Virus record (IMG/VR): IMGVR_UViG_3300042861_001875
Location: 1 to 41,712 of that record
Direction: 5' to 3' (one strand)
DNA length: 41,712 nucleotides
Origin: a virus
Taxonomy: Duplodnaviria > Caudoviricetes
The notes beneath the pieces were generated by a model. The model had not been told where the DNA came from, made no database searches, and saw only the letters and a list, made by a program, of their open reading frames with translations. Of this stretch, positions 1-27,909 are shown piece after piece (the stretch's first letter is position 1; each line of letters opens with the position of its first letter). The position numbers and the translations under genes are program-made.

Positions 1-3000
1 TGCCTGACTAGCGGGTTGGTCAATTCGCCGATTTGCTCCATTCTCGAATTGAGGGCTTTTAGCTCGTCTTTTGGCGAAACGGAACCGGCGTTGCCTGATT
101 CACTCCTGGCAGCGGTAAACGCCTTTCCAACCGCACCCCCGAAATCCTTGTATCCCGAAAACTGAGCCCGCTGATCCTCGCTTAGCGTGTGCCAAGCGTC
201 CTGAGACTGCTGTTCTGCCTGGGCGCCGGTCTGAACGTGGCCCATAGACTTGACGCGGCCAAGCCCCTTGGCAATCGCGGATTCGCGGTGCTTGGCGGCG
301 TCTTCCGGGGTATAGGTCTTGGGGGAGAAATCGTCGGGTTCGGTGGCTTTGTCGCTGCCCGCCAGAACTTTCTTTTTCATGTGATCGCCGACCTTGGGGT
401 CAATAACGCCAGACGCTATCCCGTGATCAATAATTTCGGCGATCCTTTCCGGTTCAACTCCGTTTTGCATCGCCTTTTCCCAATCGTGGCGAGACAAGTC
501 CCCGGCGGTCGTGTTTTCTCTTGGACTTCCGGTAAACGCCTTTCGCCAAACGCCGATTTTGTGCTTTCGTGCTTCCTCCTTTTGCTCGTCAATCATTTGC
601 TGATTAAACTCGCTGAGCATTTTTGAGGAAGCGACTTTTTCGTCAGCTTCTTGGATCGTTTTCGGCTTTTCTCTTGCCGGCTTAGCCTTCTCGTCCCCGC
701 TTTTCTTCCCAATCTCCCCGATCTTCATTCCATCGAATTTCCCGCCCATCCCCGCTTTAATCGTCCCGTCTTTCTTGTCGATCATCACGGGTACGCCCTT
801 CGTGCCCGCGCCGTTTGGGTGAACGGTGATCCAATCGAACATTTGCTGACCAGGGGAGGATTTCAGCTTGCGTGCGGCGTACTGCTCGACGGATAGACCG
901 AAAAGTTCCGCCATAAATCGATCGACCAAGGAATCGGCGGCGGAATACTGGGAGGATTTCGGCTTTTCAATCGTAACCATTTTGGTATTTACTCCCGTTT
1001 TCCTGAATGCGTCGCTTCCCGAAAATGACCCTTCCGGAAGCGGTTCAACCTCTCCCCCAAGGCTTTCGACCCAATCGTCAAACTCTTTCCGCTTATCGGT
1101 CCCGCCGTGGGCCATGATCGCCACCAGCCTACCGCCCGGCTTTAGTTGCTGATATGCGTGCCGAACGTGTTTCATATCGGCCCCGCCTTCAAACGGGGGA
1201 TTCATCAAAATCCTATCATACTGGCCTCTGTGCTCCATGAAGTCAGAAAACTCAACATCGTGGCCTTTGGCTCCCAAAACATCCCCAAACGTCCTGTTGA
1301 GTTCCAATGCTTTGACCTTGGCTTCCGGCTGGCTCCGCTTGATTTGATCGACGATATCGCCTTTCCCGGCAGACGGCTCTAAAACCTCATGTCCGGGTTC
1401 TAGCTCGGCCTTGGCCATCATCCTGTCGATTACGCTTGGCGGCGTCGGGAAGAATCCCTCAATTTTCTTTCCGATCAAATCCCGTTCGGCCTTAACGACC
1501 GGGTCCGCGCCGGCCTTTGCCGACTTGAGCGGAATGTATTCTCGAAGTGCTTGCCGTAATTCGTGCTCGTTATGAATTCCCGCGGCCTTGAGTCGCCTCA
1601 TTGCCGAAGACGTGCTCTCCATTTTTTGGATTAGCGACTTAACTTCGTAGCTACTGCGATCGATTGCGCCGCTTTGCCTGATTTTGTCGTAAGCGGCCTT
1701 AAATGCGTTCCAAGAGTTGTTCCCGAATTTAACAACATCGTTCGGGTCACTCGATCGATTCGCCATCGATTCCAGGACTTGCCGTTCGTAACTTACGTTC
1801 CGCTTCCCTTTTAGCAGTCCGGCCACCTTTCGAAGCTCATTTGCCATCAGCGATGGATACGGATACTGGGCGTGGTCAGCGACCTTTTCCGTAATCGGCG
1901 GGGCCGTGTATAGGTTCTCTCGCTCGCTATGCGGCGCGTTGTCGTACTTGCCGTATTTCTTGTTCAGTTCATCCTTGAGCGATTCCGTCGCGGCCCGTCG
2001 AGCCACGGCGTTAAGTTCTTCCAGGTGTGTTGACTGCGTTACCCCGTCGAGGTACTTCAGTTTGCCAGATTTGAGCCCATCAGAAATTGCCCGCATTGTC
2101 TTAGCGTGTGCAATGTCGGCCATTGCTCGCCCTTCAATACTTGCGGCCATTCCGGCCCGCCGGGACGTATTGGTCAATCGATCGCGACCTAGCGTCTCGT
2201 TGGCTCGTTCTTCGAGCCTATCGGCGTGATCCTGAAGACGTTCCGCCGTCCCCATCTGGCGATCTTTTTTCATCGCTTCCAATTCATCGGATCGATCGAC
2301 ATTGCCGCTTTGGAGCGTTAAAAACTTGTCGCGGGCTTCCTCGGTCGGAAAGTGGAAGCCTCCCGGCGTGCCGCCGAATGCCTTGTAATACCAACCGCCA
2401 AGCCTTTTGGCGGCTGAGTTCATTTCGTTGTAACTGTCCGCATCCACCCTGGCGGTCGGTGAAGCGGTGAAAATATCGTGACCGCGTTTGCTGTGGAAAT
2501 TCTTTGATAGTTCAAATCCGACCCCCTTGCCTTCACCCTTAAATTCCTGCACTTCGGCCTTTTGGGTTTCCTTAGACTTCCGCTGTTCTCGGGTGTAATC
2601 GGCGGCTAACTGGTCGTACTTCTGCCGCTGTTCAGGGGTTAAATCGAGATACTTCCTTTCCCCTAACACCTTCCGAAAGTCTTCAAGGGTTTTCGGGTCC
2701 AGTTTCGCGGATTCTTCGGCCGCCTTTTCCGCCTCTCGCTTCTGAATAGACTCTCTTTGGCTTTCGACGTGGGCGGCTAGGCTTTCCTCGGTTTGGCTGT
2801 CGATCAATGCGGAGATTCTGGCCAGCTTGACCGTATCAATACCGACCCCGCCGCCAACCTCATCGTGGCTGTAAACGTTGCTGATTCCTTTTCCGATATC
2901 GAATGCGTACCCCATCAATGCGGCGTAAATCGATTCGGCGTTCTTGTCTTTCTTCTGGTCTTTTGACCTCCAATCTCCAAGATTTGAGGCGATATTTTGA

Positions 3001-5078
3001 AGCTCTTTTGCGTTGTATCGCTTTTGCAAATCAGCAACAAACGCGCCGTGATTATCCGCGTACAACTTGTGGGCCGCTTTTAGTTCGGCTAGGGAAAGGC
3101 GGCCGGCGTCAATGTCTTTAGATAGCGCTAGCATGGCTTTGTAACCGCCGTGCTTTTCCGGATCAAAGCTTCCAAACCTGTTGGCGTCCGGCTGAACCGA
3201 TTCGGGGGATTTCGCCGCCGGTTGTGGAGTCATCGGCGCTGCGGGTTGCTGAGCGACCGGCGCCGGCCTTTCGGCTTCACTTTGCTTTTCTGTCGTTGGC
3301 TTTGCCGGCCTTGCCATTCGGCTCGCTGGCTTCTTTGGTGCTTCTGGCGGCGTGACCGCTGCCGGCTTTTCGCTGTCGCCCGACCCTCCCCGGCCGATCT
3401 CCCCGATTTTCTGCCCGTTAAACTTGCCACCCATCCCGGCGGCGATCGTCCCGTCCTTTTTGCTGATCATCACCGGATGACCAACGGTTCCAGGTCCGTT
3501 CGGGTGAACGGTGATCCATTGAAATTCCATTTGGCCGGGAGACGACTTGAGCCGGCGCCGTTCGTACTGCTCAACGGTGATCCCAAGGGCTTCGGCCATG
3601 TAGCGATCGACCCAAGCGTCAACGGCCGAATACTTTCCGCCGACTTCTTTCATAAAATCGTAGATCGACTCATCGGCTTCCGATTTCAGGTCGGGCCGCA
3701 ATCGTCCGATTTCGTCCGCCACAAATTGAGCGGTTTCGGGATTGGGGGTCGATTCGACTAATCGGGAAACGTCGGATTTTCGAAGCGATTCGATGGAATC
3801 GGCTGCGATCTTGACGTGGTTCTTGAAGTTAAAGCCCTTGGGGGGCTTGCGGGGCTGTGGCGAATTTTCTGGCGATTTCTCTGTATTTGCGGAAATGGGC
3901 TTGTAATCCGAATGGTATTTCATCAGCCACTCTTCAGCGCGATTTGACGCCTTTTCTGTAGAATCGCCTTTCTCCTTGTACCAATTTCGAAATTTTGCTA
4001 GCGACCAATCTTCGGCCGGGCTTTGCGTTCTCCTGTCCCCGACTGCATCCCTTCGAAGCGAAGAAAACAGCCCATTGATAGCATTTAGTCCTTCTTTTTT
4101 GATGTCTGCAATTTCAGAATATGTGAGAGACTTCCCCGCGTCGGTCTTTTCGTAGGCCTTGACAATCGCGTAAACACCACCAAAAGACGACCTTTTGTGC
4201 GTAGCCTCTTTACTTCCGGGCTCTCTCATCATTTCCAGCATTAAATGTTCAGCTTTTTTAGCCGACGATTTGTAGGGCGATATTGGATCCCTGCCGCTTG
4301 CAATTTCAACCGCTTCTCGCTGATGCAATTTGGAAAGCGATTCCAATTCTATGATTTCCTTCTCTAATCGCTCTTTCTTGTATTTCTCGTCTGCCGGCGT
4401 CTGGTCGAGCTTTTGCCGTGTCATTGCCAATTTGGCCATTGTGCCGGCCATTGTGCGAACCCTAGCCGCCGCCGGAGGCTCTAATCCCATTTTTTTAAGA
4501 GCGGTTTCCAGGCTGACTACGATGGTTTTCCCGCCTTCAGAAACCGCAAACTGATGGACGATGTTTCGGCTTGTTTCGGGGTTCTGTACTGCTTCTTCCC
4601 AATCGCTAACCTTGACTTCTTTTGACTCCCCCCGGCTGTCGGGCTCGCTCATGTCCCATTTCCATTTCCATTCGTAGGAATCAAGCGAAACACCGCTTGG
4701 ACTTTTGATCGGCGATTCAAACTTCTGCACCCGACTACGGCGAGCGCCAGCGTTGACGGCTTCTTTGGAGGATTTAACGCTTTTCTCGCTTTCCGCCACA
4801 CTTACCGCCCCGCCCGCCCCTGAGCCCTCCCTGGGTGCAAACTGCCCGCCCTCGCCCGTTCCGGCCGGGTGCCTGGGGTGCGACTCTTCATCCCATAGCG
4901 ACTTTTGCCGGGCCGATGTCCTGAGCAGGTTCGACTCGGTGGCCGGATCGTCCCATAGGGATAGCTGGCCAGGGGAGTTGCGGGCTCGGCGTCGTTCGTA
5001 CTGTTCGACCGAAACCCCTAGCAGGTCCGCCATGAATCGATCGGTAACGCGACCCAAAATTTGATCGTAAGCGCCCAC
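1..5078 (-). CDS. Giant polyvalent (DarB-like, probably virion-delivered) protein with N6-adenine DNA methyltransferase domain; 3' end beyond window
   Basis: Not in the ORF track because it has no stop inside the window. GTG at 5078 follows AGAGG. Manual translation found no stop, giving >1,690 codons. N-terminus MGAYDQILGRVTDRFMADLLGVSVEQYERR...HPRHPAGTGEGGQFAP. MTase motifs at ~965-1460: GFFPTP, VLEPSAGKG, ILMNPPF, LKPGGRLVAIM. Three internal repeat modules. Confidence 0.85.
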   Translation of the reverse strand, partial: MGAYDQILGRVTDRFMADLLGVSVEQYERRRARNSPGQLSLWDDPATESNLLRTSARQKSLWDEESHPRHPAGTGEGGQFAPREGSGAGGAVSVAESEKSVKSSKEAVNAGARRSRVQKFESPIKSPSGVSLDSYEWKWKWDMSEPDSRGESKEVKVSDWEEAVQNPETSRNIVHQFAVSEGGKTIVVSLETALKKMGLEPPAAARVRTMAGTMAKLAMTRQKLDQTPADEKYKKERLEKEIIELESLSKLHQREAVEIASGRDPISPYKSSAKKAEHLMLEMMREPGSKEATHKRSSFGGVYAIVKAYEKTDAGKSLTYSEIADIKKEGLNAINGLFSSLRRDAVGDRRTQSPAEDWSLAKFRNWYKEKGDSTEKASNRAEEWLMKYHSDYKPISANTEKSPENSPQPRKPPKGFNFKNHVKIAADSIESLRKSDVSRLVESTPNPETAQFVADEIGRLRPDLKSEADESIYDFMKEVGGKYSAVDAWVDRYMAEALGITVEQYERRRLKSSPGQMEFQWITVHPNGPGTVGHPVMISKKDGTIAAGMGGKFNGQKIGEIGRGGSGDSEKPAAVTPPEAPKKPASRMARPAKPTTEKQSEAERPAPVAQQPAAPMTPQPAAKSPESVQPDANRFGSFDPEKHGGYKAMLALSKDIDAGRLSLAELKAAHKLYADNHGAFVADLQKRYNAKELQNIASNLGDWRSKDQKKDKNAESIYAALMGYAFDIGKGISNVYSHDEVGGGVGIDTVKLARISALIDSQTEESLAAHVESQRESIQKREAEKAAEESAKLDPKTLEDFRKVLGERKYLDLTPEQRQKYDQLAADYTREQRKSKETQKAEVQEFKGEGKGVGFELSKNFHSKRGHDIFTASPTARVDADSYNEMNSAAKRLGGWYYKAFGGTPGGFHFPTEEARDKFLTLQSGNVDRSDELEAMKKDRQMGTAERLQDHADRLEERANETLGRDRLTNTSRRAGMAASIEGRAMADIAHAKTMRAISDGLKSGKLKYLDGVTQSTHLEELNAVARRAATESLKDELNKKYGKYDNAPHSERENLYTAPPITEKVADHAQYPYPSLMANELRKVAGLLKGKRNVSYERQVLESMANRSSDPNDVVKFGNNSWNAFKAAYDKIRQSGAIDRSSYEVKSLIQKMESTSSAMRRLKAAGIHNEHELRQALREYIPLKSAKAGADPVVKAERDLIGKKIEGFFPTPPSVIDRMMAKAELEPGHEVLEPSAGKGDIVDQIKRSQPEAKVKALELNRTFGDVLGAKGHDVEFSDFMEHRGQYDRILMNPPFEGGADMKHVRHAYQQLKPGGRLVAIMAHGGTDKRKEFDDWVESLGGEVEPLPEGSFSGSDAFRKTGVNTKMVTIEKPKSSQYSAADSLVDRFMAELFGLSVEQYAARKLKSSPGQQMFDWITVHPNGAGTKGVPVMIDKKDGTIKAGMGGKFDGMKIGEIGKKSGDEKAKPAREKPKTIQEADEKVASSKMLSEFNQQMIDEQKEEARKHKIGVWRKAFTGSPRENTTAGDLSRHDWEKAMQNGVEPERIAEIIDHGIASGVIDPKVGDHMKKKVLAGSDKATEPDDFSPKTYTPEDAAKHRESAIAKGLGRVKSMGHVQTGAQAEQQSQDAWHTLSEDQRAQFSGYKDFGGAVGKAFTAARSESGNAGSVSPKDELKALNSRMEQIGELTNPLVR

Positions 5079-5146: not shown

Positions 5147-6529
5147 TTAAGCAAATCGGGCCGAAAACCGTTCTTCCGGCCTGACCGGCTCGAATAGCTT
5201 CGGATTCGGCTTGAGCTTCGCGGCCAGAATCCGGGGGATCATGTTGTTGTGCAAAATGAACGGCCGAATATCGACCCCCTGCTGCCGTGCCTCTTGAATC
5301 ATCGCCGTAAGCTTTCCAAGGTGATTCGCGACCTGTTTCGGGTCGACGCCCTGAACCGCCTGGGAAGTCTGCCGAACCCCCATTGCGACGAGTTTCGGAT
5401 CGACGCCGCCGGATTCGACATAACCTCCCCACTGACGGGCCGCAGCTTTTCGGACCGAATCGGCGAGCGTATCGCCGGGGGACGGCTCAAATTCTTGGCC
5501 GGACTTGGCCGCCCGCAATCGTTGTTCGGATTGCCTTGATTCGTGGGCCAATTTCGCCCCGTGCATCGCTTGGGCGATCGGCTGGACAATCGCTTCAGCC
5601 TCGTTTGTCCAGGCGATCAGGGGCCGCCGGATCGCTTCGGGGAGGTTTGAGTAGTGGAGGGGGTGGGATTTGCTGCCAGGGGTGGGTTCTTTGACTTCGC
5701 CCGTAGACTGAACCGGTTTTTCCTTGGCCGTTTGGTCGCCCTGCTGCATCGGCAATCGTCCTTCCAGGTCGATCCCAGTACCACCCCCCGGGTGCTTCAT
5801 CGTCTTTTTAGGTATCGCCGCCGGCCGATTTCCCGCCGGCCTCGGTGTCGATTTGATCGGGCTCGGCGGGCCGGTGATTTTCTTCCCGGTCCGGCCGATT
5901 TCTCCAGAATTCGTGAGGAAAAACTGCTGGCCGTTGTCGCCGGTGACGTATCGGCCGCGGTCGCCGAATTTCCCGGTCGTTTGGCCGTCGGCGGCGTATC
6001 GGCTGACTTGTTTATTGATTGGGGCGTTTTGCGTCCCCCGCTCTAGCCAATCCTTGAATTGGCCGATCGTCATCGTGGTCACTGGACCTAGCTTCCACCC
6101 TTTCGAGTAGCACGCTAGATAGGCTTTTTTAGCTTCGTCGGTAGTCTTAAATCCGATCAGGGCTTTGTGTTCGTCGAATTGCCCGTTCTGATTGACCTGA
6201 TCGATCACTACAACGATTTCGCTGTCGGTGTCGGGTCCGATAAAAACGTCGAAGTGGTCGCCGTCGTGGCCTCTCGTTCCTTTGACGTACCCGTAATGTG
6301 CGGCAAGTTTTGGCCATCCGGGCTTGCGAGATTCACCCCTGGGAGTCTCAATCGTGATATCCAATCCGTGGATTCTGACGTGCCCCTTGGCGTAATTTCC
6401 GGCTTCCCGCTGCGCTTCGGTAGGTGTCTGGATTTTGCGTATCACTTCGGGCGACACACCCGCCGAAAATCGGTCGATAATCGCCCTGGCAGTAAAAGCC
6501 GCGGCAATGGCGTGGGCGTTAGATATCAC
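5147..6529 (-). CDS. Polyvalent-type protein with inorganic pyrophosphatase-like (InPase) domain
   Basis: PTEAQREAGNYAKGHVRIHGLDITIETPRG...HYGYVKGTRGHDGDHFDVFIG...DQ...FDEHKALIGF...AKKAYLACY is the InPase signature of phage polyvalent/DarA-like proteins. Confidence 0.8.
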   Translation of the reverse strand: MISNAHAIAAAFTARAIIDRFSAGVSPEVIRKIQTPTEAQREAGNYAKGHVRIHGLDITIETPRGESRKPGWPKLAAHYGYVKGTRGHDGDHFDVFIGPDTDSEIVVVIDQVNQNGQFDEHKALIGFKTTDEAKKAYLACYSKGWKLGPVTTMTIGQFKDWLERGTQNAPINKQVSRYAADGQTTGKFGDRGRYVTGDNGQQFFLTNSGEIGRTGKKITGPPSPIKSTPRPAGNRPAAIPKKTMKHPGGGTGIDLEGRLPMQQGDQTAKEKPVQSTGEVKEPTPGSKSHPLHYSNLPEAIRRPLIAWTNEAEAIVQPIAQAMHGAKLAHESRQSEQRLRAAKSGQEFEPSPGDTLADSVRKAAARQWGGYVESGGVDPKLVAMGVRQTSQAVQGVDPKQVANHLGKLTAMIQEARQQGVDIRPFILHNNMIPRILAAKLKPNPKLFEPVRPEERFSARFA

Positions 6530-10135: not shown

Positions 10136-10447
10136 TCATTTTGTTTTTACCAAGCTTTCCAGGTGCTCAACTCGTTCCCGTAAATGTTGACGATCGGCGA
10201 TGCATTCGCTGTTTGCGGTCAGTAATGATTCGAGTTTTACTTCGATTTTTCCCTTGTACTCTACAAGAGCCGCCCGCGCGTCTACCAGATCCGCCCGCGT
10301 CTCTTTTATCTGCGACTCCATCAAGCCGAAGTTGACGCGAAACAAAAAGCCGATGGCCCCGGTCAGTGTCGAAGCCCCGACGGCGATAGCCCACGGGATC
10401 CATTCGACGATCGATTGCCCTGGGTGTGGCGGCTGCAAATCGGTCAT
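10136..10447 (-). CDS. Membrane-anchored coiled-coil protein (holin-like candidate)
   Basis: N-terminal TM WIPWAIAVGASTLTGAIGFLF, then a heptad-rich tail; coupled to the portal stop. Confidence 0.55.
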   Translation of the reverse strand: MTDLQPPHPGQSIVEWIPWAIAVGASTLTGAIGFLFRVNFGLMESQIKETRADLVDARAALVEYKGKIEVKLESLLTANSECIADRQHLRERVEHLESLVKTK

Positions 10448-12051
10448 TTCGCGAGTCCTCTGCTCTGTAGTTCGCGGCCTAAAGACTGGGCGAAAGCTTC
10501 CGGGGAGGGGAAAACGGCGCCGGCCCCTCGCATCGCTGCAAAGGCGGCCTTTGGACTTCCGGGTGGGGCGGGCTCACCGTTGGCGGCCGATCCGGGAACC
10601 ATTCCTGGCGGCATTCCGGGCTGTTGGGGCGGGTAAATCTTCGGATTGGCTAAAATTTCGTCGTCGGCGTCCGGCCGTGCCGACCCGATTATTTGGTAAA
10701 GTTCGTCCGACTTGATTTTGAGCCCCATTTCGTAGGCTTTTCCGATCGCTTCAAGTCGTTCGCGGACGTTATCGGATTCGGTGTCGATCACGAATTTGAC
10801 GCCGATATGCGCCGACTTCGGAAAATTCCAAAGCTGCAGCGGCCGTAAAATATCGGTGGTGATCGCTTCCTGCAGTTTGACCGCATCGTAACTAAGGATA
10901 TCGCCAAGCGTCGCTAAGTGTGCGTCGGCGACCCCTGAACCCATCCCGGTTGCGTCCGCTTCGCTGCTTAACGTCTGGCCAAGAATATACCGTTTGATCT
11001 TATGGCCAAAATACGTCCGGATTATCTCGATCGTCGTATTGACCCCGCCGAGCCCCGGTTCCACAAGTTGAGGCATGTACCGGTCAGAATCTTCGCCGGC
11101 GGGGATCGGTGCAAGAATCACTGTCCGCCCGCCACCCATCGCGGCGTAAGCGGCTTTTTCCGTCTCGATTTTCGCTTTTTGATTGCCGCTTTGATACGGC
11201 CAAATCTCAATCCCAAATGCGGCCCGGTCCAGGTACTCGATAACCCGCTGCAAGCACTCGATTTGAGCGTACCACGTCCAGTAAATCCGATCGCGGATCC
11301 CGACCCCGTGGATCCGTCCGGCCATGCGGGGCTGATCCCACGGACCGTCTTCGATCAGGTGCTTGTGGACCGCGACGGTGGCCCGTTCCCATCGGTTCAA
11401 CCAGTAAACCAAACCGGATTCGGTTGCCTGAATCCGGGCCCGGCCTCTTTCGTCCCGATTGCTGGGGAGTTCTGGGCGGAATGCAGACGAAACCCGGATC
11501 CCGATTTGGTCGGGGTCGATATCGTGGGATCCGTCGTCGTACCGAAAAACAAGCTTATCCCCGTGCCTTGGCTCCCATCGGCGAATAACCGTTCGCCACT
11601 TGCCGCCGATATTTTTCGCTCCGTACTGGTTGGCAATCGCATAGCGGCCATACCAAATTGCTTCCTGCATTACCCGCCGATATTCGGTGAAATACGGCGT
11701 ATTTTCCAAAATCGTCGTAAGCGCCGCGGCCAAGTCCTTTTGCTCTTGGCTCTTTTCGTCGTCGACCGCCAAGTGCCACGGGCAAAGGGCTACGGTTCGC
11801 TGCCGGCCCTCGACGCATTCCATAATCCCGCAATCGGCCCGCATCCTCTGAGCGTTCGCCCTGCTATCCTGCAGGGCTTCGTCCATGTTGAGGTAGCTTT
11901 TTGAGCTAACCCCGAACCGCCCCGATGCCGTGTGAATGTGCGGGACGACATCCATCCCGAAATTCGGCGGGGCGCCCGTTCCCCTGGCGGGGTCGCGCAA
12001 AGACGACTGAATGATCGACGCGGGAATCGTGCGGGGGTCGATTTCGGCCAT
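10444..12051 (-). CDS. Portal protein, DUF935/Mu gp29-like
   Basis: 535 aa downstream of terminase; EAIWYGRY, ILGQTLSSEA...GSGVADAH, LRPLQLWNFP motifs. Confidence 0.8.
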   Translation of the reverse strand: MAEIDPRTIPASIIQSSLRDPARGTGAPPNFGMDVVPHIHTASGRFGVSSKSYLNMDEALQDSRANAQRMRADCGIMECVEGRQRTVALCPWHLAVDDEKSQEQKDLAAALTTILENTPYFTEYRRVMQEAIWYGRYAIANQYGAKNIGGKWRTVIRRWEPRHGDKLVFRYDDGSHDIDPDQIGIRVSSAFRPELPSNRDERGRARIQATESGLVYWLNRWERATVAVHKHLIEDGPWDQPRMAGRIHGVGIRDRIYWTWYAQIECLQRVIEYLDRAAFGIEIWPYQSGNQKAKIETEKAAYAAMGGGRTVILAPIPAGEDSDRYMPQLVEPGLGGVNTTIEIIRTYFGHKIKRYILGQTLSSEADATGMGSGVADAHLATLGDILSYDAVKLQEAITTDILRPLQLWNFPKSAHIGVKFVIDTESDNVRERLEAIGKAYEMGLKIKSDELYQIIGSARPDADDEILANPKIYPPQQPGMPPGMVPGSAANGEPAPPGSPKAAFAAMRGAGAVFPSPEAFAQSLGRELQSRGLAK

Positions 12052-12117: not shown

Positions 12118-13086
12118 TTACCGGCCCCGATTCGGCTCTCCGCGATCGGGCTCACCTCGGTTCGGTTGCGCGAAAAGTCTTTCAGGCAGGGTTGATCGGG
12201 TGTAGGATCGTCGAATCGCCCTGGCTCGCTCGCCAACCGGCGTAAATTCTGCCTGACGAAATGGCCCTTCCCCGCCCATTCTGGCGACGGTTCGCGTTTT
12301 AAATCCGGCGGCCGTCGCTTTCCTCGGGACGTAATCGCCGTGAGACTGGATGAGGCGGTAAGTGTGCTGATGACTCCAAACCGACCCACGGACGCGAAGA
12401 TAATCCCAGACGGCCCCGCCGGCGGACTGTGCGGACGCTCTCGAAAAATCGTGGTATTTCCTGACGGGAACGTCGTAATAGGCATAGGTCTGCCCCGGAC
12501 CGGATCGGCCGCCGCTGGAAGTCACTCCCAGGAAAGTGACGTACAAAATCCCGCGGGTTCTCGATTCCGGCTCGAAGAAATACCCGTAGACGTTGGTCGA
12601 TCCGGGGGTCAGCCGCATCGCGTCCATCATTTCCGCGAATTGCTGCGGATCGTATGCGGCGCCCCTGCCGAATAATCCCCGCGGCTTTTCCGGCTCTGGG
12701 GGCGGAGGGGCTGCCGGTGATGGCGGCGCGGGTGGCGGCGGTCCCGGTGGTGGAGGGGCTGCCGTCGGCCTGCTTGGGTACGTTATCTGTGGCGGCGGTG
12801 ATGGCCATTCCCGAATCTGTATCGGCGGGGCTCCCGGCCGCCAGTCCGGCGCCCGTTCCTCCCGTTGCTCCTGCTGCTGCCTTTGCCGAAAAACAAGTTC
12901 GGCCAGCCGCCGGGCAACTGCTCTTGCAAAATCCTGAGCGGCGACCGGTCGGAACGATCGGCGGCCGATTGTTTGCCGGACATACGGCCCGGTTTCGGTT
13001 TCCGGCGGCCGTCCGGTCACTGCTTGGCTGATTATCCCGCGGACGGTTTTTCCGGCCGATCTTGCAAGGTTGAACAATCGGCTCAT
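12118..13086 (-). CDS. Proline-rich protein with KTSC-like domain
   Basis: STNVYGYFFEPESRTRGILYVTF...TYAYYDVPVRKYHDF...SAGGAVWDYLR resembles the KTSC domain. Confidence 0.6.
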   Translation of the reverse strand: MSRLFNLARSAGKTVRGIISQAVTGRPPETETGPYVRQTIGRRSFRPVAAQDFARAVARRLAELVFRQRQQQEQREERAPDWRPGAPPIQIREWPSPPPQITYPSRPTAAPPPPGPPPPAPPSPAAPPPPEPEKPRGLFGRGAAYDPQQFAEMMDAMRLTPGSTNVYGYFFEPESRTRGILYVTFLGVTSSGGRSGPGQTYAYYDVPVRKYHDFSRASAQSAGGAVWDYLRVRGSVWSHQHTYRLIQSHGDYVPRKATAAGFKTRTVARMGGEGPFRQAEFTPVGERARAIRRSYTRSTLPERLFAQPNRGEPDRGEPNRGR

Positions 13087-14486
13087 CGGTATTGCCTGTC
13101 CCTTTTGTCACGGATCCGCTGAAGGGCGACCACGGCCCCAAATCGTTGCGAGTCGACCGTCTGCCGTGTCTTCGTCGCCGGCTCCCCCGCCGACATCATA
13201 CCGCTTGCCAACTTATTGAACGCCCCGGCGGTTGCGTCTACTTGGTCATCGTGGGCGAATTCGGGAAACGCGGTTAGTTCGTCGATAAAGTCCGAATTCC
13301 ACGCCCCCGACACAATCCGGATATTTCCGGCCTCTGCCTGAGCGGAAAGACCCATCGCCCGAACGATTTTCGCTTCCCCTGGCAGTTTCTCCCCGCCAAC
13401 CATCCGGCGACTTGCACCGACCGAAACATTGTCAATAAATGCCGGAAAGCCCACCAGCATTTTGATAAACATCTGCGAAACTTCTTTCCCGCCCGATCCC
13501 CCTTCCTGCTCGCCGAATACCAGAACCTCGTTTTGGTATTTTCGTGCATCATCCCGTGCGGTCTGCAGAATGACCTGATTTCGGTCGTGATAACTCCATT
13601 GGCCACGCTGAACGTCCTCAATGTAGAAGATCCCGCGACTATCAACCGCCATCAGGACGCCTGCCGAATAATCGCCGTCCCCCTCGGTGGATGCTCGATC
13701 CCAGTACCGGACCCGTTGACAGTCCCTCGGAACGTGATCGACAAATTGAAACCACTCCCGGCGAAACATCAGCCCTTCGATATCGACAAATTCGCCTTCG
13801 AGTTCCTGGGCGGAGAGTCGAGAAGAGTATCGGCCGCGAATGTTGTCAAAGAATTCTTTCGGCAAAAACGGGTTGTCGATCGTCCTTGCCCGGATGAGAC
13901 CGGTGTTATTTTTCGGCTTGTATGGCTTGCCGTTCGCCGTTACGCATCCCTCGAAATAATCTTCATTGTGCCCCAGTGGTTCAAAGCATTCGGTAAATGT
14001 CCAGTGTTTCGTCCCCCTGGGAGTAAACGTCAGCCACAACGGCCCCATTTTGCCCTTATATCTAAGGGTTGGGATAATCACGTCAAACGCGGCGCGGCTC
14101 GTCAAGCTGGCTTCGTCGATCCAGACCCCAGCTTTTGACGGCCCGGCCAGTTTGTCCGGCACCTCGGCGGACCGAAAAACAATCGACGCGACCCCGCGGT
14201 CGGAAGTTCGCCACCATATTCGCGGGTACGGTGACAAGATTTGGCGAATGTACACGTCCGTTTGCTTGGCTACTTCCTCAAACGTCGGAAAGGTTGTTTC
14301 CCGGACGACCCCAGCGTCGGGAGATAGAGCGGTAAACTGGTCGCCCGATTTCGCGTATTTTTGGACGGCGCGAGCCCCGATAACCGTTTTACCGACACCG
14401 CGGCCCCCGCAAAAAGCACGAATCCAGGTTTTCAGGTCGATAAAACCGGCTTGCTTGCGGTAGATCGGAAACGGCCTGACTTTCAT
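13083..14486 (-). CDS. terL: Terminase large subunit
   Basis: Walker A GGRGVGKT, Walker B VWIDEA, TFTPRG, DNPFL, QELEGEF; nuclease motifs RYWDRAS...GDYSAG and HDDQVDA. Confidence 0.93.
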   Translation of the reverse strand: MKVRPFPIYRKQAGFIDLKTWIRAFCGGRGVGKTVIGARAVQKYAKSGDQFTALSPDAGVVRETTFPTFEEVAKQTDVYIRQILSPYPRIWWRTSDRGVASIVFRSAEVPDKLAGPSKAGVWIDEASLTSRAAFDVIIPTLRYKGKMGPLWLTFTPRGTKHWTFTECFEPLGHNEDYFEGCVTANGKPYKPKNNTGLIRARTIDNPFLPKEFFDNIRGRYSSRLSAQELEGEFVDIEGLMFRREWFQFVDHVPRDCQRVRYWDRASTEGDGDYSAGVLMAVDSRGIFYIEDVQRGQWSYHDRNQVILQTARDDARKYQNEVLVFGEQEGGSGGKEVSQMFIKMLVGFPAFIDNVSVGASRRMVGGEKLPGEAKIVRAMGLSAQAEAGNIRIVSGAWNSDFIDELTAFPEFAHDDQVDATAGAFNKLASGMMSAGEPATKTRQTVDSQRFGAVVALQRIRDKRDRQYR

Positions 14487-16513: not shown

Positions 16514-17437
16514 TTAAAATTTGGGGGAACGGACAATCAAAAACTCTTCGCCCGTTCGCTTATCGACAATTCGAAAATCGGCAAACGGGTTCGAGGGGTC
16601 GGGAGTCGGCGGCGGGTCGACCGGATCCGGTTTCCCGCCGGGGACGCGAAGCATAATTTCGTCGGAGGGTCGCACCTTATTTTTTACGGTGTAACCCAAC
16701 GCGATCGACTGCTTAAAATCGGCTTCGGCTTGCCACGCCTTCCGGGCTAGCGATTGCTGGTTGATTTCCGGCCGCATTAGAGCCCCGGCCGCCTGGACGT
16801 GAGGATGCCCCAATGCGTGTCCGATTTCGTGCGCCATCGTTGTAGCGCCGAACCATAGTTGCCACGTCCGATCAGAGTCGATCCGCTGTTGCTTCGGGCG
16901 GCTGCACGAATTATCGGCGAGGTAAGACCATGCCAAGGTCGAACCGCTGAGGGCTGCCGCATCGCACCAAATATGGGCGCCATCTTTTGCCCATCCGGGG
17001 TTCGGAGTAAGGCTGATATCGATCGAATGATTCCAGCAATTCATAGCCGCAATAAGCATCTGATCAACTTCGGCTTGGCTCAATCCCTTGAGAGCCTTGA
17101 AGACTCGACCGTATCGAAGTTTACCGCGGCACGACTGCGGCCAGTTCGCTTCGGCCGGCTGATCCGAAGCGTAGAGTCGAACACCCGCAGAATCGACCGG
17201 GAAATCCGGGAATCCGCATCGCGGTTCTTCGAGGATCGCGGAGAATTCCGGACTATCGCCTTCGTGGTCGACTTTCGACCGCATGAAAAGCTGATAGCTT
17301 TCGATCGCCGTTTTGACCGCTTGGTCGGTCAATTTCAGGAGCGGCAAGTCTTTTTCCGCTATCCCGGTCGGGGCTACCGGATTGTTGAAATGCCCCAAAT
17401 CGAACAAGCGGCGGATAATTTCGGCGGATCGCATCAT
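16514..17437 (-). CDS. Matrixin-family (M10, MMP-like) zinc metalloprotease zymogen
   Basis: Cysteine switch PRCGFPD; zinc motif HEIGHALGHPH; Met-turn ALMRP; TLAWSYL strand. Confidence 0.85.
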   Translation of the reverse strand: MMRSAEIIRRLFDLGHFNNPVAPTGIAEKDLPLLKLTDQAVKTAIESYQLFMRSKVDHEGDSPEFSAILEEPRCGFPDFPVDSAGVRLYASDQPAEANWPQSCRGKLRYGRVFKALKGLSQAEVDQMLIAAMNCWNHSIDISLTPNPGWAKDGAHIWCDAAALSGSTLAWSYLADNSCSRPKQQRIDSDRTWQLWFGATTMAHEIGHALGHPHVQAAGALMRPEINQQSLARKAWQAEADFKQSIALGYTVKNKVRPSDEIMLRVPGGKPDPVDPPPTPDPSNPFADFRIVDKRTGEEFLIVRSPKF

Positions 17438-18042
17438 TTCTTCCCGATCAGTTCATTGACTTTGGCGGTAATCTCGACGGCTTTCTCAAGCGTCACTTTA
17501 TCGGCCGATCGCTCGACCCCCTGAGCAATGGCGATCAAAAACGTCGACATTTTGGCGGCGTCCATCGGCCCGCCCGTCGCGATTCTTTCCGCGGCTTCCG
17601 ATCCTACGCGGGTTCGGAAGGTCTCCCACCCTTTAACCAGCGACTCGGCGGCCAATTTCGTAACGTTCGCGGCATTATCCGGCTGCACTTCGCCGCGTTG
17701 AACCGCTTCGCCGACTTGCTGGTAAATCGTCGCGATGACCCCGGCCCCGGCTTTGTCGCTTTCTCCCTTCGCCCATTCATCGGCCTTGGCGCTCAAGGCT
17801 TCGTCGGGGCTCTTGGGCGGTTCCGGCGGCGTCGGTGGGTTTGGTGGGTTTGGTGGGTCTGGCGGCGTCGGTGGGGCTGCCGTCCGCAGGTCTGCAACGG
17901 ATGACGCCCTAACAAGAATCGGCGTCCCGTCGCCGGCTTGCGTCAAAACGAAATAACCCGCGTCGGTGATAACCACGGCGGGCTCGGTGGAAAACGCGAT
18001 CGCGGGGAATGCGATCGCGAACAAAATCAAGGCTCGTAACAT
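17434..18042 (-). CDS. Exported protein with Pro-rich linker
   Basis: Signal peptide MLRALILFAIAFPAIAFS; PPTPPDPPNPPNPPTPPEPP linker; helical C-domain. Confidence 0.7.
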   Translation of the reverse strand: MLRALILFAIAFPAIAFSTEPAVVITDAGYFVLTQAGDGTPILVRASSVADLRTAAPPTPPDPPNPPNPPTPPEPPKSPDEALSAKADEWAKGESDKAGAGVIATIYQQVGEAVQRGEVQPDNAANVTKLAAESLVKGWETFRTRVGSEAAERIATGGPMDAAKMSTFLIAIAQGVERSADKVTLEKAVEITAKVNELIGKK

Positions 18043-18077
18043 TGCGCGTCCGTGGGCTAGCGTCGCGGTGGTGGTAA

Positions 18078-18497
18078 TCAGCGTATCGACGTTCGGGTCG
18101 ATCCAAGCAAGCCTAGCGGCCCGCGTCTACTGACTTGATCGATTCTTTGGCGGCCAGGGGTTTGGATCGCAAGAATTCGCTGTTGAACGGAATTCTGGGT
18201 AATGCAGGCACCGCCGGCGCATTCTGCCACCCCGCTTCTTATTCGCACTCGCTGGACCTGTGCGGGTTGGATTTTGACCGCCTGGATTCTCTGGATTCGC
18301 TGAATCTGCTGGACCTGAACCGGCTGAACCCTGACTGCCTGAACGGCCTGCAATTCATAAACCGGATCGGCTTGAACCAACTGAACAACCTGATCACCGT
18401 GCCCTCCGGCTTCGGAAATCGTCGGCAGTCCAATCGCAACAAAACAGACGGCCGCAATGGCCAGCAAACCGAAAAAGCGTCGTAGTTTTCCTAACAT
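18078..18497 (-). CDS. Exported Gln/Val-rich protein
   Basis: ATG 18497 after GGAG; signal peptide; (V/I)QxVQ repeats; CAGGAC motif. Confidence 0.6.
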   Translation of the reverse strand: MLGKLRRFFGLLAIAAVCFVAIGLPTISEAGGHGDQVVQLVQADPVYELQAVQAVRVQPVQVQQIQRIQRIQAVKIQPAQVQRVRIRSGVAECAGGACITQNSVQQRILAIQTPGRQRIDQVSRRGPLGLLGSTRTSIR

Positions 18498-18498
18498 A

Positions 18499-18999
18499 TC
18501 ACCAATCTCCCAGGAACAGTAATTTAGCCACTTCACCGCGTTCCTGCTCGGTTAATGGCTCCAAATCCTTCGGCATTTCGCCGCTTAGGATCGATCGCAT
18601 GACCTTCGATTTTTGCTCGGCGGTTAGTGGTGACGAACCATCAAGCACGATTCCGCCGGCCGAATTTTGGGCAGAATGGCATTTCGCGCACTTCTGAACC
18701 AAGACGGAATTCACCGGGGCCGATCTCGATTCGGCGATTGATTTTTCGGCTTCAAGAAACAAGCGAAATTTCTTCAATAGCTCGGCGTCTTCGTGGTCCG
18801 ACGATTGTCCCATCCTGGCAGACTCGACAAGCACCTGAGCCCGATACGGCGCACCGACAAGGTAAAGCACCTGCGGGGCGGATTTCTGAACGACCGCATA
18901 CTCCACCGATCGCTGGACCTGTTGCACTTGGTAGCAATCGGTCGCGGTTGCGGGGGCGGCTGCGAGCAGGACTGCCAGGAGGGTTACAAATCGGATCAC
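18499..18999 (-). CDS. Exported mono-heme c-type cytochrome (planctomycete cytochrome C-like)
   Basis: GTG 18999 overlaps the upstream TGA, with GGAG RBS. Signal peptide. KCAKCHSAQNSAGGIVLD and distal GEMPK (His/Met ligation). Confidence 0.78.
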   Translation of the reverse strand: MIRFVTLLAVLLAAAPATATDCYQVQQVQRSVEYAVVQKSAPQVLYLVGAPYRAQVLVESARMGQSSDHEDAELLKKFRLFLEAEKSIAESRSAPVNSVLVQKCAKCHSAQNSAGGIVLDGSSPLTAEQKSKVMRSILSGEMPKDLEPLTEQERGEVAKLLFLGDW

Positions 19000-20282
19000 G
19001 GCTGCGATCTCCAATCTTGGACCGATCGCACCGCTTGGGCATAAATCGATTCCCAGGACGTTCTGGGGATCGTGAATCCGTGGGCGAGGGCGATCAACCG
19101 GGGGTGGACGGGTATCCCGCTATTCTGAGCGTATCCGATCGCCTTTGTCAAATCGTCGGGGATCACTCCGACTTCACGGGCTGCGGTTTCGATCGTCAAC
19201 GGCGAGTCGTAAAGCTTGACCGTCGAAACAAAATCGGCGACGGCTTCGCGGGGTGGCTTGCCCGTCACCGCTTCAACAATCGCCGCGAATTCCTTTCGGT
19301 TTTCGCGTAGTTCGTTTTCTAAGTCAGACAGGTGAAACGACTCGATTTTCCGCTGCGTGGTCTTGTCGCTGGCGTATAGCTCGGCCCCGGCCCCGATCAG
19401 TTCTCGGACCTCATTTGATTTCACGTCGATCAATCCCTCGGCGTGACAAGCGATACACGAAACACCGTTGCGAATTTCGTTTGCGTTGTGCCGAACTCGG
19501 GTGTAATCGCTGGCGACATCCGGCGGCGCCGCTTCCTGTCTTTGGCCGGCGGCGTTCGATAGCAAGTAAACCTGCAGAGCCCCGCGGGTGCCGGTCGCCG
19601 TGTGAATCTTCGGGATTCCGACAATCCATTCTTCGGCCTCATGCTGGAAGCTGCCATCGGGGCGAAGCGTCGGGTCGGTTCGATCGTTAATTGTCGACGA
19701 ATCCCGCGTTCCGTAGGCGTAACCCTGGCGCATCCCGAAAGATTCGATCCACCGTTTCTTGGACAGGATCACCCCGGAATTCCCTTCAATCAGGCCGAAC
19801 GATTGACCGGCCGATCGGGACACCCCGACCCGCGAAAGGAAATCATCCCTGGTAGCCGGCGGGGCGCCGAATAGCAAATCGTAATAGCTGGTCGACTCCT
19901 TCGCGTCGGTCGCGAACGTAATGAACCAATCGGCTCGGATCACCAGAGACGGGCGGCCTTTCGCAAAAACCGCGTAGGGGTTTCGGGCTGCGACGGTCGG
20001 GAATCGAGACTCCCAGCCAAATGCCGCGGTATCGATCCAGTAGAGTCCTTCGCCGGCCGGGTTTGGTCGCTGGTAGTCAACGATCGGCTCAAGTGATAAC
20101 GAAGGCAGGATCAGACGAAGGGCTGCCAGGGTGGGTTCGTGTCGATCCGGCGGCAAATGGTTGACCGAAAAATAATAAGTCGTCGCCGGGTCCAGCCCGC
20201 TAGAATCGCGGTGAGCGGTCGCCGCGGCCCCGTCGAGGACTGGGAGCACGCCGGCGAGTAAAAAATAAATTGCGGTCAGCAT
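18996..20282 (-). CDS. Exported heme c-binding (CxxCH) protein
   Basis: Signal-like N-terminus MLTAIYFLLAGVLPVL from ATG 20282. FQHEAEEWIVG...LQVYLLSNAAGQRQEAAPPDVASD...IRNGVSCIACHAEG resembles planctomycete cytochrome-domain proteins. Confidence 0.7.
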   Translation of the reverse strand: MLTAIYFLLAGVLPVLDGAAATAHRDSSGLDPATTYYFSVNHLPPDRHEPTLAALRLILPSLSLEPIVDYQRPNPAGEGLYWIDTAAFGWESRFPTVAARNPYAVFAKGRPSLVIRADWFITFATDAKESTSYYDLLFGAPPATRDDFLSRVGVSRSAGQSFGLIEGNSGVILSKKRWIESFGMRQGYAYGTRDSSTINDRTDPTLRPDGSFQHEAEEWIVGIPKIHTATGTRGALQVYLLSNAAGQRQEAAPPDVASDYTRVRHNANEIRNGVSCIACHAEGLIDVKSNEVRELIGAGAELYASDKTTQRKIESFHLSDLENELRENRKEFAAIVEAVTGKPPREAVADFVSTVKLYDSPLTIETAAREVGVIPDDLTKAIGYAQNSGIPVHPRLIALAHGFTIPRTSWESIYAQAVRSVQDWRSQP

Positions 20283-20328
20283 CGGGGATCCGTGGGCTAG
20301 TCGGACGCCGAAATCGGCTCCCCTGACG

Positions 20329-20571
20329 TTATCCGCCGACCGGCTCCCCGTCAAGCTTCCGGCGGGTCCGCTCGATTCGAGCCATCACCAACCATTGCCT
20401 GAACGGCGTCCACTCCCTGACTGCAGCATCGATCGACTCAGACTGATTCGGAGTCGACCGAAGAAACTCGGCCACGTCGCGGGTCAGGACCGCGGAAGTT
20501 TCAATTTTGCGTCCAGAACTATGTTTGGGCTTGCGCCCGGAATTCGGCCGCTTTCCGCCGCGGTTTGTCAC
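20329..20571 (-). CDS. Small DNA-binding protein (RGGxRxxxGRK, ribbon-helix-helix-like)
   Basis: GTG overlaps the upstream TGA; NRGGKRPNSGRKP...LTRDVAEFLRSTPNQSESIDAAVR. Confidence 0.6.
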   Translation of the reverse strand: MTNRGGKRPNSGRKPKHSSGRKIETSAVLTRDVAEFLRSTPNQSESIDAAVREWTPFRQWLVMARIERTRRKLDGEPVGG

Positions 20572-21827: not shown

Positions 21828-21869
21828 ATCTTAATCGGCTGCCGTTTGATTGTCAAATAGCATTTCAAA
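21828..21869 (-). promoter_or_regulatory. Sigma70-type early promoter A
   Basis: TTGACA (21856-21851), 17-bp spacer, TAAGAT (21833-21828); near-identical to promoter B. Confidence 0.8.
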
Positions 21870-22684: not shown

Positions 22685-22726
22685 ACTATAATCGACCGCC
22701 CTTTGATTGTCAAATAGCAAATCAAA
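22685..22726 (-). promoter_or_regulatory. Sigma70-type early promoter B
   Basis: TTGACA (22713-22708), 17-bp spacer, TATAGT (22690-22685); TTTGAT...ATCAAA inverted repeat brackets the -35. Confidence 0.82.
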
Positions 22727-25681: not shown

Positions 25682-27709
25682 TCAAAACCTCTTCATCTCT
25701 TTTTCTATCACTGGTTTCAAGCTTAACCCGATCCACTCACGCCAAAAGTAATCGCCATCCCGGCCTCTAGCGACTTCAATCTTCGGGACAATCGACCGAA
25801 CCCGTTTTGCGAATGCCTGCCGTGTCGATCGGTCGACTAGATCATTCGATCGGCACCAGTTTTGATAAGCTTCAAAACAGTCCGCCGCATTGACTTTGCC
25901 GCCTTCCTGGCAACATTCCCAAACAAAAGCCGATACCGGGGAAGTCTCAATTCGCATCCAGTTAACCGAATCGGTCCCCGATTTCGGCTGCTTGATCTTC
26001 CCATTCTTTTCGGAGTAGAGCCGATGGCGCCCCAAAATCGCCCAGTTAAGTATCCCCGACAATTCCGACTGAATCCGCATTTCGACCCGCGGATCTTCTT
26101 TCCCTGCGTGAGTCTTATTCATGACCAAGATGATAATTCGGTTCAAGATCGCGTCGGATGAATCCTTGAACAGCGGGATTTCGTTACTGAACAACATAAA
26201 CCGAATCGGCAGATTTACCCCCGATAGACTCGGCTTGTACTTCCTTTCAATCTCCTGGGGATCTTCCCCGACGATCGACAAGACACGTTCGGTCAGGACC
26301 GTGTAATCGATCCGGTCGCCGATTCGAGCATCGGGGATAACTGCCAGCGATTTCCCAATCAGCGACGCAAGGCCGAATTGACCCGATAGCGTGGTCGGGG
26401 TCGGGCTAGCGACGGACGAATGACCGATCATCGCTTTGACAAGCCGCATGATCGTACCCTTGCCTGACCGGGATTTTCCGATCACACACAAGAACCGTTG
26501 CATACTTGTATCTTGGGTTAGCAAGTAGCCAAACCACTCCTGGAGGGCGTCTATTGCTTCCTGGTCGCCCTCGAATTGCTCCCAGAGCCATTCTTGCCAA
26601 TAAAGACATTGGGCTTCGGGGTCGAAGTCGTAATCCAGCTTCAGGGCCGAAAACCATTCGTGATTGTGCGGCCGAAGCGATCCGGCTAGATCGCCCGACA
26701 GTACCGCGTCGAGGTCGAGCAGTCCGTTTCGCATCGACACCCAATTCCGCCGCCGCCTGTCCGATAGGTGCGACGGCATTTCGACCGATCCGGACAATGC
26801 GACAAGCGATTTCATCGCGGTCACGACATCGCGGATCAGCCGGGTCGATACGTTTCGAACCTTCTTGGGCTTTTGCGGCTCCCCGGTTTCAAGTTCCTTC
26901 CTGGCCCGTTCTTCCTCCTGGATTCGCCACAATCGCTCGAATTCGGCCCGAATCACCTTGAATAGCTTGGCCTGTAGGTCGCTGTCGCTGATCGGCGACC
27001 ATAGGCCAGACTTCCACTTCCAAAATTCGTCCCGCCAAAAAACCAACTTTCCGCCGGCAAACTCCGAGTAAAATTGCAAATTTAGCCGGGCAAGCCGGGT
27101 GTGGTCGTCGTCCGATTCGTCGATATCTACGCTGCCAGGGGTGAATTCTCTCGGCCCCTCTGGTATCGCTGCGATCGCGGTTTCGGCCGTCTGAATTCTG
27201 ACCGGACCGTCGATTTCCGCCGGTTGCTGAATCTGGCCCGATCGACCAATCGCAAGCAATCGAGCGTATATCTCCTGGTCGTCGAGTCCTTCGAGTCGCT
27301 GATCGGCGATCCAGTCCCGAACGTCTTTCCCGTCCGTCGGGGCGATTGGATAAGGGAGAATCGCATTCCGAACCGTCTTCGCAAATTTCGCGATCACCGG
27401 CCCCCATCCCGGCCGCTTCCCGCCGTTCGGCTTGCTCACCCAGGTCGCGCCGTCCTGTCCGGGCACGTCGCAATCGTGAATCACGATCACTTCGTCGGCA
27501 CCCGCAAATCGCGAGCAATATTCGACCGCTTCGGGCTTGGTCGCGTTTTCGGTCGATCCGTAAATGTTGGTCGTGACGATATGCCGCGGCCGCCGATCTT
27601 CGGGGAACGAGAAAATCAACGAACGGATCGCCGCGGCGTCTGGGAAACCCTCGCACTTCCAAATCAATTCCGCCGGCTCTGACGGATCAAAGATAAAGCC
27701 AAAGCTCAT
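25682..27709 (-). CDS. P4/D5-family primase-helicase, Toprim + SF3 helicase half (no zinc finger)
   Basis: Toprim KCEGFPD and IHDCD; MRNGLLDL; LQEWFGYLL; Walker A GKSRSGKG; VGEDPQEIERKYK; FSNEIP. ATG 27709 has GGAG RBS and ATGA coupling. Confidence 0.88.
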   Translation of the reverse strand: MSFGFIFDPSEPAELIWKCEGFPDAAAIRSLIFSFPEDRRPRHIVTTNIYGSTENATKPEAVEYCSRFAGADEVIVIHDCDVPGQDGATWVSKPNGGKRPGWGPVIAKFAKTVRNAILPYPIAPTDGKDVRDWIADQRLEGLDDQEIYARLLAIGRSGQIQQPAEIDGPVRIQTAETAIAAIPEGPREFTPGSVDIDESDDDHTRLARLNLQFYSEFAGGKLVFWRDEFWKWKSGLWSPISDSDLQAKLFKVIRAEFERLWRIQEEERARKELETGEPQKPKKVRNVSTRLIRDVVTAMKSLVALSGSVEMPSHLSDRRRRNWVSMRNGLLDLDAVLSGDLAGSLRPHNHEWFSALKLDYDFDPEAQCLYWQEWLWEQFEGDQEAIDALQEWFGYLLTQDTSMQRFLCVIGKSRSGKGTIMRLVKAMIGHSSVASPTPTTLSGQFGLASLIGKSLAVIPDARIGDRIDYTVLTERVLSIVGEDPQEIERKYKPSLSGVNLPIRFMLFSNEIPLFKDSSDAILNRIIILVMNKTHAGKEDPRVEMRIQSELSGILNWAILGRHRLYSEKNGKIKQPKSGTDSVNWMRIETSPVSAFVWECCQEGGKVNAADCFEAYQNWCRSNDLVDRSTRQAFAKRVRSIVPKIEVARGRDGDYFWREWIGLSLKPVIEKEMKRF

Positions 27710-27909
27710 TTTTGCCGCTCCAATAAACACCGGCAAATTGCAAACCCGAAAAGCTCTATCACCAAATAAGGCCAAATAGCGGCAAGAGCAATCGCCATGA
27801 ACATGTTTATGTCGCTATTTTTTGAATACTTTTTAATGGCAAAGCAAAGCTCAAAGGCGATAAACAAATAGAAGTAAAGTAATAATTCCACAGATGAGAC
27901 TGACATCAC
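27706..27909 (-). CDS. Small two-TM membrane protein
   Basis: Two hydrophobic segments, AAIWP motif; AT-rich. Confidence 0.6.
   Translation of the reverse strand: MMSVSSVELLLYFYLFIAFELCFAIKKYSKNSDINMFMAIALAAIWPYLVIELFGFAICRCLLERQK

Follow-up and report, generated by a model that had tools for sequence, protein, structure and literature searches.

Polyvalent proteins are predicted to be packaged and injected (Iyer et al. 2017, PMC5512222), and for their entry into the head and their separation into activities the published model, in the portions of that paper drawn on here, leans on embedded metallopeptidases. According to excerpts from the literature on other phages, internal proteins of T4 and SPN3US are cut by the prohead protease (PMC7411985, PMC5694885), processing varies among the giant-phage homologues (PMC5694885), and DarA of P1 is believed to be processed (PMC9024508). 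The locus described below, around a giant polyvalent protein gene called gene B, offers exactly placed candidate cut sites, a protease candidate and naturally occurring swap variants.

The gene B locus and its repeated element

The window, i.e. the whole stretch of 41,712 nucleotides analysed here, represents most of a tailed-phage genome, in which terminase, portal, gene A and gene B are all encoded on the minus strand. The features of the locus and of the gene B product are as follows.

13083..14486 (-), terminase large subunit (domain and family match)
10444..12051 (-), Mu-type portal (PF06074)
5147..6529 (-), gene A, 460 aa, InPase domain at aa 38–163 (PF18823, E 2e-43)
3..5078 (-), gene B, giant polyvalent protein with 1692 aa inside the window, its 3' end open at the window's left end
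4953..5069 (-), junction 1, aa 4–42, helix with DRFMA and EQYE sites, basic patch, SPGQ, clamp-like motif QLSLW
4836..4910 (-), second clamp-like motif QKSLW and W..E.HPR..GGQF tag, aa 57–81
3636..4781 (-), cargo 1, aa 100–481, no family or fold found
3519..3635 (-), junction 2, aa 482–520, KYSA, DRYMA and EQYE sites, basic patch, SPGQ
3390..3518 (-), WITVHPNG tag copy 1, aa 521–563
951..3386 (-), linker and cargo 2, aa 565–1376, a unit of ~740 aa with a C-terminal NPPF-type adenine methyltransferase at aa ~1205–1372
834..950 (-), junction 3, aa 1377–1415, QYSA, DRFMA and EQYAA sites, basic patch, SPGQ
705..833 (-), WITVHPNG tag copy 2, aa 1416–1458
3..704 (-), cargo 3, aa 1459–1692+, no Pfam family, differing from L001 and from the X2 variant

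Complete relatives of gene B encode 1538–2187 aa. Gene B itself likely continues past the window into an end like that of the related locus L001, about 490 aa or more, no contig bridging the two; in L001, genes for protease, capsid and a gp36-like protein follow downstream. Window DNA was found in lake metagenomes, and contigs of four runs were compared, runs with a share below 0.2 being left out. Since relatives of the clade protease sit in Planctomycetaceae and Pirellulaceae assemblies (5/6 genome loci), the phage host is likely a planctomycete.

Several other features of the window were recorded. A KTSC-like protein is encoded between terminase and portal (12118–13086, minus strand) and is conserved in L080, L090 and L101, and upstream of the terminase (16514–20354, minus strand) lie genes for a matrixin-like peptidase, a cytochrome c-like protein and several secreted-looking proteins. 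The primase-helicase is apparently split into a zinc-ribbon half (39978–40712, plus strand) and a primase/D5 half (25682–27775, minus strand), ~12 kb apart and with no inverted repeat at the ends, possibly by an inversion or an assembly join. An intergenic 38-base direct repeat (87%; 21832–21869 and 22689–22726) is perhaps a regulatory site.

The preliminary description of this DNA had reported that the N-terminal motif of gene B recurs twice, and we located the three copies at aa 11–38 (nt 5048–4965), 482–516 (nt 3635–3531) and 1377–1411 (nt 950–846), the full repeat being 39 residues long in three copies. By phmmer, each copy detected both of the others (domain E 1e-6 to 2e-10), and in the other frames of the window the three leader queries found no domain better than E 2. 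A blastp self-comparison gave no off-diagonal match for either real or shuffled gene B, an uninformative control. Pairwise identities amount to 18, 17 and 20 of 31 aligned residues (55–65%), with a DNA identity of only 58–60%; the repeats are thus old copies maintained as protein sequence. As also described earlier, copies 2 and 3 lead into the WITVHPNG module (WITV tag, aa 521–563 and 1416–1458), and copy 3 begins just past the methyltransferase cargo, where homology to P0069/P0071 ends at aa 1372–1373. Copy 1 leads not into WITVHPNG but into a W-DEESHPR..GGQF tag. The WITV tag matched no Pfam family and nothing in the Atlas, and only 5 records of cultured phages match it, 0 of which cover the junction.

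A tandem-domain reading of the repeats was rejected, the copies lying 470–900 aa apart with unrelated sequence between them. The preliminary description had instead read them as cassettes copied from the N-terminal leader of the protein, by which concatenated cargo would be targeted to the head and cut apart. This reading was supported in part, in that the cargo is variable, the repeats contain the motif of the clade's protease-scaffold and they form no tandem domain. The copied leader was not supported, the element being N-terminal only in the window's gene B, P0082 and P0085. Its first copy begins at residue 87 in L001, P0077 and P0079, and it is internal in L102, L096 and L080. The gene B repeat is best described as a junction element and no true N-terminal leader. 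When a profile of ten copies was compared with 1.84 billion protein representatives, 21 matches were obtained, 17 of them with the element, and two or three copies were present in 8 of the 17. The remaining four (P0088, P0090, P0091 and P0096) were dropped as low-complexity or unrelated.

Cargo modules and their exchange between phages

Cargo 1 matched no Pfam family, nothing in the Atlas and nothing in BFVD at E <0.001, and its single-sequence model reached a pLDDT of 53. It is replaced in L001 and in the lake runs X2 and X5, and its last ~70 aa are unchanged in P0077 and P0079. Cargo 2 matched phrog_15406 (E 2e-181) and MTS (E 7.8e-5, just under the cut-off); the unit is 68% identical in P0086, and in further phages more distant copies follow different leaders. 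The window's gene B itself yielded a single named domain. The named conflict domains are InPase (gene A) and the NPPF methyltransferase (gene B), with LPD1, GNAT, DdrB-ParB and ART-PolyVal in relatives. Among the cargo of the giant proteins of L115, L093, L095 and L005, sigma-70 region 2-like and DdrB-ParB domains were observed. In the cyanobacterial P0069 and P0070, Phe-centred motifs flank the methyltransferase cargo of gene B and the leader in front is another one, a hint that a fourth code exists besides the three described below.

Variation of the cargo between repeats across phages, which the preliminary description had proposed to look for, was found among close relatives as well as in other lake metagenomes, and the breakpoints fell at the junctions or close to them. 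Between L001 and the window, DNA identity is 87–97% at the ends of gene A and in three blocks of junction plus tag (aa 12–99, 491–562 and 1374–1457 of the window's gene B), and the sequences that separate these are unrelated. In place of the methyltransferase, L001 has LPD1 and other cargo, and it lacks the InPase between the two sites that flank this domain. In run X5, cargo 1 is replaced and ~1.3 kb of extra sequence is inserted at the VEQY codons. In run X2, junction 1 is doubled around 1378 bases, cargo 1 is replaced, the InPase is gone from between its two flanking sites, and a different sequence directly follows both WITV tags. P0079 bears a hybrid junction, with a beginning like that of copy 2 and an end like that of copy 3, slot 2 being missing, and its WITV part is identical to copy 3 at 42/43 residues and to copy 2 at 34/43. 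The LPD1 cassette occupies different slots: it follows the first junction detected in L001, P0083, P0087 and P0097, and the second one in L102 and P0080. Breakpoints occur inside cargo too (nt 3737 and 346), and the architecture is variable among gene B orthologues. Conserved junction DNA may serve as a homology arm for the exchange of cargo between co-occurring phages.

The Tyr/Phe motif, the predicted protease and the tag

The gene that comes after gene B in L001 and L080 encodes 544–577 aa and precedes the decoration and capsid genes. In the product of this gene, H83, H129 and S185 are invariant across 57 aligned homologues, and a comparison of its model with BFVD gave annotated prohead proteases (E 9e-8 and weaker). 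The N-terminal domain matches T4 gp21 (Z 6.2, rmsd 4.3, 116 aligned) and VZV protease (Z 5.9), which are the only rows covering this domain among the structural matches listed and have middling scores. Foldseek against the PDB gave nothing at E <0.001, and no Pfam family was matched. The gene is predicted to encode a serine prohead protease of the gp21/assemblin fold. It lies outside the window and no contig joins it to the window; in the probable source run, a protease gene ~98.5% identical to that of L001 is present at similar depth.

The scaffold parts alone of 32 dereplicated sequences (from 60 protease-scaffolds) were used to define the scaffold motif. ERY, YSA, EQY and RYS were among the top enriched 3-mers, and the motif E-[RQK]-[YF]-[ASQEG]-A has 1–6 sites per scaffold. 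All of its matches in gene B (5/5) fall inside junctions and all of those in gene A (3/3) at module borders, and counted over the whole of gene B the excess is modest (5 seen, 1.7 expected, p ~0.04). No excess was observed in 21 other window genes (5 seen, 5.1 expected), nor in the L001 capsid-region proteins or in 17 giant proteins of other phage groups. Twelve other clade proteins showed a two-fold excess, yet 5 of these 12 have no strict match. Since Ala is common at +2 (94/141 scaffold sites), cutting after the Tyr/Phe or after that Ala are both possible. In the protease gene itself, the motif is placed directly after the protease domain, where self-release is expected.

We also observed that the capsid N-terminal sequence PG[GQ]xNT[YF] recurs in the protease-scaffold just past the first Tyr site (L001:10253-11941 and L001:12831-13883). 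It is present in 16/32 scaffolds by the strict pattern, and in the alignment G, G, N and T hardly vary. With a cut at this point, the scaffold would be left with an end that resembles the N-arm of the capsid protein.

In gene A, the InPase domain is flanked by DRFSA and SRYAA sites, and the C-terminus lies shortly past an ERFSA site. In the window, gene A thus ends only a few codons downstream of an ER[FY]A site, and gene B opens anew with the element. In the other proteins holding the last domain of gene A (11/11), this domain runs on through the ER[FY]A site into further cargo; 10 of these 11 had been collected for holding the junction, and two (L102 and P0078) are near-identical. A stop and restart between genes A and B can replace a junction. 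In L101 and L005, the portal itself runs through such sites into tags and cargo; these portal fusions (L101:4843-7974 and L005:8270-11962) comprise Tyr-site, tag and cargo modules, with InPase in L005.

HK97-type proteases cut after Lys. The residues before the WITV tag were tabulated for 70 distinct tags, of which 9 are from loci classed by portal only and 13 from loci with neither protease nor portal. At loci with a DUF2213 (Pfam) protease, Asp occurs at −2 to −4 before the tag in 34/34, and at those with a second protease type hydrophobic-K-[AS] precedes it in 10/10; in the gene B clade, [DE][RQK][YF] is found within 30 residues before the tag in 3/4. The Lys pattern is also present in 7/34 Asp-class and 2/4 Tyr-class rows. 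DUF2213 scaffolds are enriched in DSA, AMD, TGD and AQD, and second-type scaffolds in KSL and KSI. The residue code before the WITV tag appears to follow the phage's own protease type, an agreement that is strong in kind and thin in independent cases because the rows come from three clades. As separate observations, L066 (a 737-aa frame) and other DUF2213 loci (L002–L075) contain internal WITV repeats after an Asp motif, and many DUF2213 loci have an AFxLG-type helix before the tag.

In distant members, the helix before the last site varies, and the basic residues, SPGQ, QxxL[FW] and WITV or HPR are kept after the site. Because it is located after the likely cut, the best-conserved part of the junction would likely stay on the cargo.

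QxxL[FW] recalls the bacterial sliding-clamp-binding motif QL[S/D]LF, generally QxxLF (PMC12309361, in the parts of that paper used here). QxxLF was seen 37 times against 2.9 expected in 19 clade proteins, position 1 being strongly enriched for Gln only, and the pattern is absent from the 32 protease-scaffolds. Fourteen of 47 matches lie 11–14 residues past a Tyr/Phe site, and the copies are in flexible regions. The clade QxxLF thus resembles the clamp motif in its enrichment and flexible setting and differs from it in that the window's own copies (QLSLW, QKSLW, QMEFQW and QQMFDW) are degenerate, being Trp-ended or hexamer-like. Many clade copies have Gly at position 3, and the same source reports that this residue weakens clamp binding in E. 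coli (PMC12309361). Because many copies are homologous and the window's own deviate, tethering of some cargo to the host sliding clamp by the QxxLF-type motif is proposed only tentatively.

Candidate mechanism and comparison with known systems

Since the junction motif is repeated in the predicted head protease, the gene B product is likely packed into the head and cut into injected pieces. In the mechanism that we favour and regard as moderately probable, the polyvalent gene B chain would dock on the scaffold core and be cut at its junctions by the head protease, and the tagged pieces would be ejected with the DNA. Gene B would encode a chain of interchangeable cargo modules linked by the repeated junction. 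Once packed inside the prohead, this chain would dock on the scaffold core by the helix that precedes the sites. The predicted maturation protease would then cut at E/D-[RQK]-[YF]-x-A, with the scissile bond behind either the aromatic residue or the Ala, and each product would keep an N-terminal tag composed of the basic patch, SPGQ, QxxL[FW] and the WITV or HPR mini-module. After injection, the tentative clamp tether would act on some cargo, and the methyltransferase cargo would protect the incoming DNA from restriction.

An alternative that we judge unlikely is that the Tyr/Phe motif is no cut site but a docking signal in common with the scaffold, its several copies serving as anchors for a protein that is packaged and ejected whole. 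The sites do lie on a predicted amphipathic helix and several scaffold matches fall in well-folded helices; precedents, as excerpted, are N4 vRNAP, which is packaged uncut (PMC5512222), and DarB, which has a 30-residue N-terminal packaging signal (PMC9024508). Against this reading, the motif directly follows the protease domain, at a place expected for self-release; the kind of residue in front of the WITV tag shifts with the protease family, and a stop codon can stand in for a junction. Less probable still, the repeats could be leftovers of gene fusion that act as recombination arms only, without a role at the protein level. Clustering of breakpoints at junctions and the 89–97% identity of same-slot junctions between phages are as this would have it, but the gene B copies share 55–65% of residues at 58–60% DNA identity, the core is kept in 17 library proteins, and the motif recurs in the scaffold and at the borders of gene A. 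Least probable is a cut made by a zincin peptidase, either embedded in the protein or encoded next to it, or by a protease of the host once the protein has been injected: L001 has HExxH domains in both gene A and gene B, such domains also occur in 5/10 library proteins checked, and MPTase processing has been proposed for polyvalent proteins in the part of the paper seen (PMC5512222), but HExxH is absent from the window's gene A, from the 1692 residues of gene B (an incomplete ORF) and from the junction-bearing P0077, P0079 (complete), P0084, P0086 and P0089, the HExxH cassette is itself swappable cargo, and the motif of the junctions corresponds to that in the scaffold of a protease of the serine type.

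If cutting at the junctions is right, the borders of unnamed injected effectors are marked in the sequence (cargo 1 and cargo 3, both without family), and there would be a Tyr/Phe-centred prohead protease code together with a tag that stays on the product and may promote its ejection or its tethering to the clamp. More speculatively, temperate-sized tailed phages may share a cargo grammar made up of a protease-specific cut code, a universal WITV/HPR tag that remains at every new N-terminus and marks the pieces for ejection, and a clamp-binding peptide that parks cargo at the replisome, an extension we consider doubtful; that the cut code (Tyr/Phe, Asp or Lys) is swapped along with the head protease is, as a part of it, equally conjectural. 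If true, wild populations would trade anti-defence cassettes through junction DNA, injected effectors could be recognised directly in the sequence, and foreign proteins could be loaded by means of the WITV/HPR tag.

No description of the gene B junction was found in the literature, of which mostly the open-access part was covered. The comparisons that follow refer to the sections of the cited papers used here. Like the polyvalent proteins of PMC5512222, the gene B product is large, multi-domain and mosaic, is encoded beside portal and terminase, and has relatives fused to the portal. There, however, processing is ascribed mainly to embedded MPTases and no repeated junction is described, whereas the borders in gene B are formed by a defined element; nor do 'sliding clamp' or 'clamp binding motif' occur anywhere in that paper (PMC5512222). 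As with IPI-III and Alt of T4, SPN3US and phiKZ, a short motif is common to scaffold, protease and cargo, and the protease is of the gp21/assemblin fold (PMC7411985, PMC5694885). The CTS of T4, on the other hand, is a single N-terminal propeptide that is discarded, while the gene B element is repeated and mostly internal and its conserved part would stay on the product (PMC7411985). The CTS is cut after Glu (x-x-E), whereas the scaffold motif of the clade, E-[RQK]-[YF]-x-A, is Tyr/Phe-centred (PMC7411985), and unlike in T4-type systems the capsid protein of the clade has no motif site. Like the Dar system of P1, gene B would represent a packaged anti-restriction giant with a methyltransferase and a short packaging signal, N-terminal in P1 (PMC9024508), but Dar has one signal per protein, and neither repeated junctions nor cassette exchange are described for it there (PMC9024508). 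What the gene B locus adds is junction swapping at the population level, the exchange of a stop for a junction, and one tag under three protease codes. Taken by analogy with these systems, gene B is best read as polyvalent proteins combined with T4-style head processing.
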